Positions 48,212 through 51,697 of a stretch of 64,000 nucleotides of DNA are shown in pieces. Where the stretch lies: assembly GCA_041697335.1 (NCBI GenBank), contig JBGUGD010000007.1:96001-160000 (forward strand), written 5' to 3'. The DNA comes from Vampirovibrionaceae bacterium NZW_1234. Lineage in GTDB: Bacteria > Cyanobacteriota > Vampirovibrionia > Vampirovibrionales > JAGQHJ01. The notes below the pieces were generated by a model that saw nothing but the letters and a program-made list of their open reading frames with translations, had not been told where the DNA came from and did not search any database. Positions within the stretch are counted from its first letter, which is position 1. Each line of letters begins with the position of its first letter. The position numbers and the translations under genes were made by a program.

Positions 48212-49420
48212 TCACACCACTCGTGCAGGTTCCCAGAAATCATTCTGGTTGACTTGATGTGTCACTTGGTCCAGTGCTTTGGAAATATCCTGGATCAGAT
48301 CCTCCGCTGCCTCCAGGCCGACGGAGATGCGAAGGAGTTGGTCCGATATTCCCGCTGTTCTTCGGGCTTCTGGGTCCATGGCGGCATGGGTCATGGTGGC
48401 CGGGTGGGCAATGAGGCTCTCAACGCCACCCAATGACTCGGCGAGACTAAAAAGCTCTAAGGCATTTATGAACGAGATGATTTCATCATCACCGCCAATG
48501 AGCTCAAAACTCACCATGCCGCCATAGCCTTTTTGTTGCCGACATGCCAAAAGATGGTTCGGGTGGCTGTTTAGACCTGGATAGTAGACTTTATGTACTG
48601 CAGGGTGTTCCTCCAGAAGTCGTGCAATTTGCAGCGCGCTGGCTTCTTGTTGTCGAATGCGAATATCCAGTGTACGAATTCCGCGTAAGGTTAGATAGCT
48701 GTCAAAGGGTGCACCTGTATTCCCGATACAGTTACTCCACCAGGAAAACAGTTGATGTAATTCCGGGGTTTTCGACACCACTGCCCCACCGACAACATCG
48801 CTGTGGCCATTGATATATTTGGTTGTGGAGTGAACAACAATATCGACCCCCAGATTTAGAGGTTGCTGAAGGGTGGGTGATAAAAATGTATTATCTGCAG
48901 CGCATAACGTTTTGTATGGTTTGGCCAGACGGGTTACGGCCTGAATATCCGTTAAGCGTAATAAGGGGTTACTTGGGGTTTCGATGAGGAGTAGTTTTGG
49001 GGCTTCCCGTTCAAATTCTTGATTTAAGGCTTCCAGGTTGGTTAAGTCCACAAATTTAACCCGGAAATACCCTCGTTCGGCTTTATGTTTCAATAATCGA
49101 TAGGTTCCGCCATAACAGTCATGAGGCGCAAAGATAAGTTCTCCTGGTTCTACGGCATAGAACAGGAGATCGAGCGCTGCCATGCCAGATGCCGTGAGCA
49201 CGGCGCCAAACCCGCCCTCTAAGTTGGCAATGGTTTGAGCGGCATCATCACGTGTGGGGTTTCCGCTTCTGGTGTAGTCATAAGGGCGTTTGCCTTTAAA
49301 CCCGTCAAACGTAAAGTTGCTTGACAGATACAAGGGCGGTATAACGGCTCCATGAGCCGTGTCGGTTTCCACGGCGGATCGTGCGGCAATGGTTGCGGGT
49401 TGATAGGGACGGACTGTCAT
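48212..49420 (-). CDS. metB: Cystathionine gamma-synthase
   Basis: YTRSGNPTR, ASGMAA, DCYGGT, ETPSNP, DNTF, HSTTKYINGHSD, AESLGGVESL. Confidence 0.92.
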   Translation of the reverse strand: MTVRPYQPATIAARSAVETDTAHGAVIPPLYLSSNFTFDGFKGKRPYDYTRSGNPTRDDAAQTIANLEGGFGAVLTASGMAALDLLFYAVEPGELIFAPHDCYGGTYRLLKHKAERGYFRVKFVDLTNLEALNQEFEREAPKLLLIETPSNPLLRLTDIQAVTRLAKPYKTLCAADNTFLSPTLQQPLNLGVDIVVHSTTKYINGHSDVVGGAVVSKTPELHQLFSWWSNCIGNTGAPFDSYLTLRGIRTLDIRIRQQEASALQIARLLEEHPAVHKVYYPGLNSHPNHLLACRQQKGYGGMVSFELIGGDDEIISFINALELFSLAESLGGVESLIAHPATMTHAAMDPEARRTAGISDQLLRISVGLEAAEDLIQDISKALDQVTHQVNQNDFWEPARVV

Positions 49421-49444: not shown

Positions 49445-50467
49445 CTATCGTGTACCAATAGTGTGATGCGCCAGGATTACCTGACGAAAAATGCTTTCGA
49501 GATAGGGAATTTCTTTTAAGAAGGCATCATGGCCATAAAGCGAATGGTGGGTATAACACTGCTTTTTCATGGGAAGTGCATCATACAGATCAGTGATCGA
49601 TTCAATAGGAACCAGTTGATCGTGTGTGAAGCCAACCACAGTGACAGGCACATGGATTTGTTTGGGATCAACATGATGCAAGTCGATGGATTCGGACAAG
49701 GCAAGGTAACGTTCTGGAGACATTCTTCCAATAAACGCCCGGCCTTGGCTTTGTAAGTATGCTTCCAACTCAGTACGATCGGAAAAGCGTTGGCGAAATT
49801 CCTGAGAGGTTCTGTAGGTCGTCATGCCCAACTCTCTCGCCAGGCTCAACGCTCGATCCGGTTGTTGGGTTTCCATGCCAAAGCGAAGAATTTTTCGCTG
49901 AATACTGCGCCAGGCCGATCCCAACGGATCCGGATGATGGGCCGCACAAAGTACCAGGAGCTCTTGAACTCTCTCTGGAAAGAGTTCGCCAAAACTCAGG
50001 GCCACCATTCCCCCATAGGAGGCCCCGATAAAGGCGGCGAGCTGCTTGATGCCGAAATAATTGCATATCACAGCTGCAATACGGGCTTGATCCGTGGGTG
50101 TCACCGGTAAGTTCAGTGCTGTTGCTTCTGCGTCAGACGGAAAAAACTCAAAGGATAAAATTCGGAATTTGCGGGTATCTAAAGTTTTTTCAGGGCCACA
50201 TAATGCAGACCACCACCCCGACTGTTGGGTTTCTGGATTGGGGGATACGAACCGGTTGGCCGAAATGCCTCCTAAAACACAAAAAACGGGGGCTTTCACA
50301 GGACCCACCAATCGGGCGCGAACAGAAACCGGGAAATCAAAGAGCCCATACTCCAAACGAAGGGGTGTTGGAAGTGTTATCTGGCAATCAATATCCTGAT
50401 AAGATTCTCCAGAATACCAGGATTTTGTTGTCTTGAGTGATGATTTGAGGGCCGTTTTCATTGACAT
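49445..50467 (-). CDS. metX: Homoserine O-acyltransferase (short MetX type)
   Basis: LGGISA, GWW, GASYGG nucleophile elbow, TYRT..EF..RF, DQLVP, YGHDAFLKE; start 50467 or 50461 after GGAG. Confidence 0.88.
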   Translation of the reverse strand: MSMKTALKSSLKTTKSWYSGESYQDIDCQITLPTPLRLEYGLFDFPVSVRARLVGPVKAPVFCVLGGISANRFVSPNPETQQSGWWSALCGPEKTLDTRKFRILSFEFFPSDAEATALNLPVTPTDQARIAAVICNYFGIKQLAAFIGASYGGMVALSFGELFPERVQELLVLCAAHHPDPLGSAWRSIQRKILRFGMETQQPDRALSLARELGMTTYRTSQEFRQRFSDRTELEAYLQSQGRAFIGRMSPERYLALSESIDLHHVDPKQIHVPVTVVGFTHDQLVPIESITDLYDALPMKKQCYTHHSLYGHDAFLKEIPYLESIFRQVILAHHTIGTR

Positions 50468-50580: not shown

Positions 50581-50622
50581 AACAGTTAAAAGCCCCTCCG
50601 GACGAACTGTCTGGAGGGGCTT
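50581..50622 (-). terminator. Attenuator terminator upstream of metX
   Basis: Minus strand AAGCCCCTCCAGAC-AGTTC-GTCCGGAGGGGCTT-TTAACTGTT. Confidence 0.88.
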
Positions 50623-50650
50623 GTCAAATCTGATGAGCTTTTGAGTAGGA

Positions 50651-50782
50651 CTAATGCGACAAGAAAGTTCCTCCGGACAGCCTGAACGGCATCGGCATCA
50701 TCATCATCGCCATGGTGGAATGACCCAAGCGCGAAGAAACAACTTGGGAGGGCATGTGTTGAATTGTGGTTAACAACAACAT
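50651..50782 (-). CDS. Met-rich leader peptide of the metX-metB operon
   Basis: MLLLTTIQHMPSQVVSSRLGHSTMAMMMMPMPFRLSGGTFLSH; 6 Met in 8 codons at 50690-50713; alternative in-frame starts exist. Confidence 0.8.
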   Translation of the reverse strand: MLLLTTIQHMPSQVVSSRLGHSTMAMMMMPMPFRLSGGTFLSH

Positions 50783-50840
50783 CTGTATCTCATTCCAGCC
50801 TAAGGTATTATATAAAAACACTTGATGCGTTTGAGGAACC

Positions 50841-50869
50841 ATCGTTGCAAATTTTCAGGGACTTGTCAA
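50841..50869 (-). promoter_or_regulatory. Candidate sigma-70 promoter for the met leader
   Basis: TTGACA-17 nt-AACGAT with upstream TG; an alternative TATAAT lies near 50807-50812. Confidence 0.45.
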
Positions 50870-50905: not shown

Positions 50906-51697
50906 TTATATGGGTTGAAGCAGGGGTGTTGACGCTTGTTGTGCAACAAAATCCCAGAGGGTTTTCCGAGCATTTAGCGCCTCTTCAATGGCCGCTTCTG
51001 CCACTGGAATCAGTGCCGGTGTTTGAGTCAAAAGCTCATCCAGAATTCGATGGGCTCGTGGGCCGTGCTCTTCCCCATCCAGTTGAATGTGACGCTCAAG
51101 GTAAATAAGAAATGAGGCGCAATTTAAGCCGTGACGATGGAGTTCCGAGACCATTTCCATAAACATTTTGGGAATAATATCTTCACGGGCATGAAAGAAC
51201 ACGGCAGCCTGGACTTCCGGTGGGGCCTCCAACACGCGGAACGTGGTTAAGATGAAATTTTGAACTTCAGCAGGTAATGCTGCTTCTGCCAGTGCATCAG
51301 CCAGGGGGTGTCCTTTGTCCAGGGCAGCAATTACTGTTGTAATGGGGCCAAGGTCGCATTTTGCTTCGTCCATTGCGTTTAAATAAAGCTGAAAGTGACT
51401 CAATGTCTGGTTATTAATTCTATCCGTCTCTTCATCTAAGATGATTTCGTTGATCAGGCGAGCCAGTTCCAAGTTTTTGGGAGGCCGCCAAGGGAGGATC
51501 ATGCCTGTCAAATGAAGCTGAAGACTCTTGACCAGTGACATAAAATCCCAGACACAAAAAATGTGATGCTCCATGAACAGTCTTAAGGCTTGAGGAGAAT
51601 CTATCTGGGCGTAAACCGGATGGTCTTTTAACGCGTGTTTAAGCTCAACAATCCGGGACGAGGAAAAGAGTGGCTGTGTCATGGGGCTGACTTTCAT
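50906..51697 (-). CDS. DUF3050-like heme-oxygenase-fold iron enzyme
   Basis: MEHHIFCVWDFMSLVKSLQ, INEIILDEETD, SHFQLYL, YLERHIQLDGEEHGP. Confidence 0.88.
   Translation of the reverse strand: MKVSPMTQPLFSSSRIVELKHALKDHPVYAQIDSPQALRLFMEHHIFCVWDFMSLVKSLQLHLTGMILPWRPPKNLELARLINEIILDEETDRINNQTLSHFQLYLNAMDEAKCDLGPITTVIAALDKGHPLADALAEAALPAEVQNFILTTFRVLEAPPEVQAAVFFHAREDIIPKMFMEMVSELHRHGLNCASFLIYLERHIQLDGEEHGPRAHRILDELLTQTPALIPVAEAAIEEALNARKTLWDFVAQQASTPLLQPI

Follow-up and report, generated by a model that had tools for sequence, protein, structure and literature searches.

A putative Met-codon leader attenuator upstream of metX-metB in a member of the Vampirovibrionales, at a place held by the SAM-I riboswitch in relatives

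Introduction

In the classical attenuators of trp, his, thr, leu, ilv and phe, a short ORF rich in cognate codons is followed by an antiterminator that competes with an intrinsic terminator, and biosynthesis genes lie downstream. Among the amino acids methionine is the textbook exception, with genes under the control of repressors, SAM riboswitches or T-boxes. Met codons were reportedly predicted in the thrA attenuator of Pasteurellales by Vitreschak 2004, and Lopatovskaya 2010, or related work of the same group, is said to have possibly predicted them at metX of Hyphomonas. Our searches of the open-access literature found no experimentally tested Met-codon attenuator. An earlier note on the DNA studied here had likewise known of no characterised example, which holds for experimental work within these searches; however, a predicted one exists in metL of Streptomyces lividans, a proposed methionine-dependent attenuator with Met and Cys codons upstream of metNIQ (PMC8079986). 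As described in the available text of that paper, metL is leaderless, carries two internal Met codons, has no typical intrinsic terminator, precedes transporter genes and was predicted from RNA-seq.

Several other described systems come close in one respect or another. In mycobacteria, experiments on leaderless polycysteine short ORFs indicated that stalling controls several operons (bioRxiv 10.1101/834739). According to the available text of the preprint, these leaders use Cys only and act on translation by hiding a ribosome-binding site, with no terminator involved. For Actinobacteria, the available text of PMC1262725 has Cys leaders among its predictions and reports no structure conserved at met operons, and that of PMC1183508 holds nothing on methionine. 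In Xanthomonas campestris, the met operon carries a SAM-I riboswitch that is reported to respond to uncharged initiator Met-tRNA as well (PMC7270179). Finally, hisS genes are described with either a T-box or a His leader, a sensor exchange within one gene family (PMC2965389).

Here we analyze a leader upstream of metX-metB in Vampirovibrionaceae bacterium NZW_1234 (genome G000), within a stretch of 64,000 nucleotides that we call the window. This leader is very probably a ribosome-mediated Met-codon transcription attenuator that would read charged Met-tRNA. It resembles the classical attenuators in its codon-rich short ORF, its antiterminator and intrinsic terminator and its downstream biosynthesis genes, and differs from them in that the sensor codons are Met (Met/Cys in relatives). 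Judged by its sequence, it belongs with classical ribosome-mediated attenuation and not with the narrower trp anatomy. Compared with metL, the leader has six Met codons, a clear predicted switch between an antiterminator (segments 2 and 3, 2:3) and a terminator (segments 3 and 4, 3:4) and biosynthesis genes downstream, and it occurs in a different phylum. Similar to the mycobacterial polycysteine leaders, it would use sulfur-amino-acid codons as its sensor. The Xanthomonas operon is of the same kind and carries its sensor at the same position, but that sensor is a ligand-binding aptamer; the window has none, and Met-tRNA would be sensed via the ribosome instead. As in the hisS case, a riboswitch-type sensor would have been exchanged for a leader peptide, although the available text of PMC2965389 does not name an exchange of SAM-I for a Met leader.

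Results

The leader ORF and the metX-metB operon

The features of the leader ORF, its candidate promoter and the genes that follow are listed below.

50841..50869, minus strand: candidate sigma-70 promoter, read from the sequence and below the threshold of the promoter scanner
50651..50782, minus strand: leader ORF, with candidate starts at 50782, 50755 and 50713 and a TAG stop at 50653-50651
50690..50713, minus strand: sensor codons, six Met among eight codons
50458..50550, minus strand: 30-codon ORF directly after the terminator, with a ribosome-binding site of -4.0 kcal/mol
49445..50461, minus strand: metX, homoserine O-succinyltransferase of the PRK08775 (Xanthomonas) type (NF006449/PRK08775, 311.9 bits, cut-off 296)
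48212..49420, minus strand: metB, cystathionine gamma-synthase (TIGR02080, 567 bits, cut-off 505)

Both genes score above their curated cut-offs, in agreement with the metX-metB assignment of the earlier note, and the Met-rich short ORF that it had described is present with its stop and with six Met codons at 50713, 50707, 50704, 50701, 50698 and 50692. The leader frame is open 5' of 50713 and contains more in-frame ATGs at 50755, 50782 and 50842, so that the start of the leader is not fixed; the last of these ATGs overlaps the candidate -10 box. Depending on the start, the peptide would comprise 43 (50782), 34 (50755) or 20 amino acids (50713). Starting at 50755 gives a 14-codon spacing to the Met run, equal to that of a second leader in the same genome (described below). 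Predicted ribosome-binding sites at 50782, 50755 and 50713 are weak or absent (-3.3, +3.5 and -3.6 kcal/mol, respectively), and the second leader (G000:C13) has no ribosome-binding site at its start.

The candidate promoter consists of a perfect -35 box (50869-50864), a 17-nt spacer and a weak -10 box (3/6; 50846-50841), with a predicted transcription start near 50834. A perfect -10 hexamer also occurs at 50812-50807, without a good -35 box. Across the order, a -35 box lies 68-199 nt 5' of the Met/Cys run in 23 of the 24 located leader candidates. DNA contigs from four runs, with partial coverage and none across the leader, list no substitutions.

The likely start of metX is 50461, where the ribosome-binding site is predicted at -6.6 kcal/mol and lies ~120 nt downstream of the terminator; the first possible ATG is 50491, and the MetX database protein has 338 aa. 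The stop of the 30-codon ORF overlaps this likely start, which suggests either translational coupling to metX or a remnant of the leader's original gene. Upstream of the leader lies a gene for a DUF3050 protein (50906-51697, minus strand) with a weak haem-oxygenase-like match.

The earlier note had seen no SAM-I or T-box signature, and Rfam bears this out: nowhere in the window did a family reach its gathering score, and near the leader the best match was to His_leader, below threshold and on the opposite strand. SAM-I (RF00162) was not found in the genome, which is 94.75% complete, and the other SAM classes have no match in the window. The T-box (RF00230) has no match in the window or the genome, and the MetJ repressor (PF01340) was not found in the 94.75% complete genome. 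Additionally, metE was not found in the genome, and by eye there is no Met-rich leader upstream of metH, hom or the genome's three other Cys/Met PLP enzymes. We also considered that the genome might lack SAM synthetase, which would make SAM uninformative as a signal, since metK is missing here and present in 47 of 49 genomes of the order. This idea was rejected: dnaG, a neighbor of metK in 2 of 4 same-family loci, is missing as well, and the neighboring rpoD is truncated where contig C18 ends. The missing metK thus points to an assembly gap and not to gene loss.

Antiterminator and terminator

Downstream of the sensor codons, the predicted switch is formed by three elements.

50670..50680, minus strand: segment 2, the 5' arm of the antiterminator, which begins 9 nt downstream of the last Met codon and lies within the leader ORF
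50607..50621, minus strand: segment 3, the arm common to the antiterminator (2:3) and the terminator (3:4)
50588..50621, minus strand: predicted intrinsic terminator, with a hairpin at 50621-50591 of 12 pairs and -23.3 kcal/mol

The 10/11 pairing first noticed between segment 2 (50680-50670) and segment 3 (50617-50607) was reproduced, with -13.7 kcal/mol as an intramolecular helix. In the automatic pairing test the window's 2:3 scored -17.2, which was equalled by 1 of 300 shuffles and 2 of 40 non-cognate pairings. A GC-rich terminator followed by U residues had also been proposed; the hairpin stands, but the U tract is short, with four U at 50591-50588 before a U-rich stretch, and a consensus terminator scanner requiring 5 T in 8 did not list it. 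The stability of the whole 156-nt region was not above that of shuffles (z -1.04).

The further helix proposed between segments 1 and 2 is not supported. At -7.8 kcal/mol it was matched by 235 of 1000 shuffles, and in none of the modelled states of the leader does the probability of its four outer pairs exceed 0.03. Only in an isolated 57-nt fragment does the helix as a whole come to 0.49. No pause or protector helix that would synchronize ribosome and polymerase was found in the folding models.

Rarity of the leader and a second copy in the genome

Short ORFs enriched in a single amino acid were sought in 1871 upstream regions of the genome, which gave 133 matches. At least five Met within 10 codons occur in 2 of the 1871 regions, the window leader and one other. 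Both of these leaders are followed by a strong hairpin (-22.9 and -27.8) and precede methionine-yielding genes, and a chance origin of the window leader is unlikely.

G000:C13:181485-181375 (L197:7486-7376), minus strand, outside the window: second Met-rich leader, six Met

The second leader has a clear promoter, and its terminator (-27.8 kcal/mol) is followed by a long U tract. Its segment 2 differs from that of the window leader and fits its own terminator arm (-20.1, 4 of 300 shuffles). It precedes a long (422 aa), divergent DUF62 gene (L197:6015-7283), whose protein matches the two SAM hydroxide adenosyltransferase domains, PF01887 and PF20257, above cut-off and has weak matches to solved DUF62 proteins. 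DUF62-family enzymes convert SAM to Met and adenosine (bioRxiv 10.1101/2025.08.29.672840), and the divergent long protein would be SAM-hydrolase-like. The same genome also carries a canonical DUF62 gene on C5.

One alternative is that a Met-rich frame came to be next to the terminator of the upstream DUF3050 gene by chance. Met runs are indeed common in the low-complexity proteins of this genome, with 13 runs of four or more ATG. Eleven of the 13, however, sit in frames of at least 100 codons, and both intergenic cases precede methionine-yielding genes. Another reading is that the leader is a real member of its family but has decayed into an untranslated remnant with a leaky constitutive terminator. 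Such decay would account for the four-U tract, the uncertain start and the occurrence of the leader at metX in one genome only, but the frame, the Met run, the 10/11 pairing, the spacing and the hairpin are all intact, and segment 2 fits its own terminator while differing from segment 2 of the second copy. We judge decay to be very unlikely.

Elsewhere in the genome, an Ile/Leu/Val-rich leader with a terminator lies before ilvB (L199 upstream of 4944; G000:C14), and a Tyr/Phe-rich short ORF followed by a terminator-like hairpin lies before a DAHP synthase gene (L201 upstream of 541; G000:C26). Therefore, the genome appears to use leader attenuation at other genes as well. Upstream of 4423 in L200 (G000:C37), a tandem pair of short ORFs both carry a Gln run and then an Arg run, and a hairpin follows each of them; the 502-aa gene after the pair has no Pfam or NCBIfam match. 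A His-rich short ORF with a hairpin upstream of 826 in L198 (G000:C7) may be due to chance, and the 563-aa gene after it likewise has no Pfam or NCBIfam match.

Met/Cys leaders across the order

A search pattern built from the two G000 leaders proved too strict, matching just G000 and one other of 49 genomes of the order, and was abandoned. The long DUF62 gene is found in 14 of these 49 genomes and metY in 19. A single locator was run on all loci with enough upstream DNA, which 2 of the 14 long-DUF62 loci lacked; as a control, we took 30 of 38 ilvB matches. At least five Met or Cys within 10 codons were located at 13 of 19 metY loci, 6 of 12 long-DUF62 loci and 1 of 7 metX-metB loci (that of the window), and at none of the 30 ilvB loci. 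The remaining 6 metY and 6 long-DUF62 loci fall below this threshold. Conversely, at least seven Ile, Leu or Val were found at 26 of 30 ilvB loci, versus 3 of 19 metY, 1 of 12 long-DUF62 and 2 of 7 metX-metB loci. The metY leaders are not independent, as 10 of the 13 come from one genus, and one of them (L300) looks spurious by eye.

The 2:3 pairing was also compared across leaders. In the 21 leaders with a terminator, cognate 2:3 pairing averages -18.1 kcal/mol, compared to -11.4 (sd 3.0) for 364 non-cognate pairs from unlike loci; four of the 21 (L287, L288, L298 and L300) do not exceed the non-cognate pairs. When 10 metY leaders are aligned, the 2:3 helix pairs in 94.5% of cells, against at most 66% in slid controls, and 3 of 11 pairs are changed on both sides. 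These compensatory changes trace to about three lineages, and the 2:3 helix is thus supported but not proven. Pairing of the metY terminator is 84%; three rows that are out of register by one base bring this figure down. Taken with the rarity of the leader, the cognate pairing and the gene specificity, this covariation largely refutes a chance origin, to which we assign a negligible likelihood.

Two long-DUF62 loci, L212 and L213 (G020 and G038), have leaders that are Cys-rich rather than Met-rich and a weak hairpin, perhaps reflecting a shift to cysteine sensing. At L214 (G022:C1:288537-291673), ilvB immediately follows the long DUF62 gene on the same strand, and the leader of the DUF62 gene mixes Ile with Met and Cys codons.

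Because the ribosome-binding sites are weak and TRAP-like proteins are able to bind triplet repeats, we considered whether the switch might operate independently of translation, with a protein on the AUG/GAU repeats or an undescribed riboswitch driving the choice between 2:3 and 3:4. Against this, the runs are kept in one short open frame with an upstream start, and they are interrupted by Cys codons of both spellings (19 TGC and 17 TGT), a mixture that fits the runs being read as codons. Additionally, no sequence or fold conserved upstream across the gene families was found, nor an Rfam match. A translation-independent switch is therefore very unlikely.

Model of the ribosome on the leader

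We modelled the leader with an assumed ribosome footprint of 28 nt and a transcript that reaches to segment 3. The modelled probability of 2:3 is at least 0.88 whichever Met codon the ribosome occupies. It drops to 0.52 and then 0.14 on the two codons past the last Met, is at most 0.04 over codons 34-41, and climbs back to 0.77-1.0 at the last codons and the stop. In the model, a stall on the sensor codons leaves segment 2 free, and onward translation covers it. In the absence of a ribosome, 2:3 forms with a modelled probability of 1.0. Once segment 4 is complete, 3:4 wins in every modelled state, with similar results at 50 C.

These results agree with one half of the attenuation logic originally proposed, in which a stall on Met frees segment 2. 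The other half, in which a ribosome reaching the stop disrupts 2:3, requires revision, as a 28-nt footprint at the stop is already past segment 2. The prediction is instead that termination is decided during passage of the ribosome over segment 2. The choice between the two helices must be kinetic, since at equilibrium a complete 3:4 prevails. And since 2:3 can re-form in the model when the ribosome is on the last codons or the stop, termination would depend on timing or steric hindrance beyond the model.

From the elements and the model we infer a sequence of translation, stalling and termination as follows. RNA polymerase would initiate near 50834 and a ribosome would load onto the leader ORF. 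When Met-tRNA is scarce, the ribosome would wait on the Met run with its footprint ending at or before 50680, leaving segment 2 free to pair with segment 3 as it emerges; the terminator would then come too late and metX-metB would be transcribed. When Met is plentiful, the ribosome would be over segment 2 (codons 34-41 of the 43-codon frame), allowing 3:4 to form and transcription to stop near 50585. A ribosome moving over segment 2, or positioned between segments 2 and 3, would leave segment 3 to the terminator.

The predicted mechanism departs from the classical attenuators in that segment 2 lies deep in the ORF; in most copies, 13-40 nt separate its end from that of the stop codon. It differs from the narrow trp/his type in having no 1:2 helix and in that segment 2 is uncovered with the ribosome at the stop. 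Because there is no protector (1:2) helix and 2:3 forms without a ribosome, an untranslated leader is predicted to be ON (read-through), unlike trp.

A stall on the leader could also be brought about by the nascent peptide, arresting the ribosome in response to free Met or SAM and not to empty Met codons. TnaC is an arrest peptide that senses tryptophan, proline is known to slow elongation, and the Met run ends in alternating Pro and Met codons in many leaders of relatives as well as in the window. However, beyond the Met/Cys run and this frequent ending, the leader peptides share neither sequence nor length, Met and Cys interchange among leaders, and a stall on the Met codons as such agrees with the modelled switch point. 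Peptide arrest thus seems improbable, and the preferred reading remains a Met-codon leader attenuator, as first proposed. It is supported by the rarity of the leader, the second copy, the gene specificity across the order, the covariation of 2:3 and the footprint model.

SAM-I riboswitches at the orthologous operon

MetX of the PRK08775 type occurs in just 7 of the 401 genomes of the class that were searched. In all 6 other genomes of the order that have it, RF00162 lies directly upstream of metX (62-75 bits), and these six are the only SAM-I matches among the 49 order genomes. The comparison with relatives suggested by the earlier note gave a divided result: Met/Cys leaders recur at metY and long DUF62, with 2:3 covarying at metY, but none was found at the orthologous metX of the 6 relatives, and none was convincing at 160 further loci. 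Four Met-rich matches among the 160 were set aside as the ends of frames of 104-176 codons. Since no orthologous metX has the leader, its conservation rests on leaders at other genes. Rfam was run on 20 of the 160 loci, chosen partly because a crude SAM pattern had missed them, and identified 13 SAM-I, 3 SAM-alpha and 4 with nothing. The SAM-alpha cases (L065, L110 and L141), in place of SAM-I, represent a third sensor on the same operon.

A quick MetX tree was built from 53 of 87 rows, the search being unfinished, with SAM labels assigned by Rfam because the crude pattern had mislabelled L006, L115 and L174. In this tree the window MetX falls within a 10-row clade (SH-aLRT 99), beside proteobacterial sequences, and the other nine members have SAM-I by Rfam. 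Given SAM-I at this place in all 6 order relatives, the leader probably replaced the riboswitch here. We infer the direction of the swap by parsimony and from the quick, unfinished tree; the simplest reading is that the operon arrived with SAM-I and that the lineage then swapped in a resident Met leader. Two genomes, G040 and G044, hold both sensors, with SAM-I at metX-metB and a Met/Cys-containing leader at long DUF62.

Discussion

A broader reading of these leaders is a Vampirovibrionales methionine 'ribulon', in which Met/Cys leaders govern metY-metX, the SAM-hydrolase-like gene and a gained metX-metB operon whose SAM-I was swapped out, and in which both Met tRNAs are sensed. The operon would have been gained horizontally, and an elongator-Met stall and a failure of fMet-tRNA initiation would both lead to read-through. 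Sensing of both tRNAs is suggested by two features of the leader, its lack of a protector helix and the fact that all of its sensor codons double as start codons. Such a ribulon would be a ribosome-based counterpart to the sensing of SAM and initiator tRNA reported for the Xanthomonas operon riboswitch (PMC7270179). We offer the ribulon tentatively and regard it as doubtful in its full extent.

The proposed attenuator itself works by a mechanism of known kind. What it adds is the predicted ON default and the comparison with SAM-I on the same operon. The shared leader ties the divergent DUF62 family to methionine supply. Additionally, the operon that SAM-I precedes in six relatives is preceded here by a Met leader, a natural comparison in which the sensing of SAM and that of Met-tRNA can be compared side by side.
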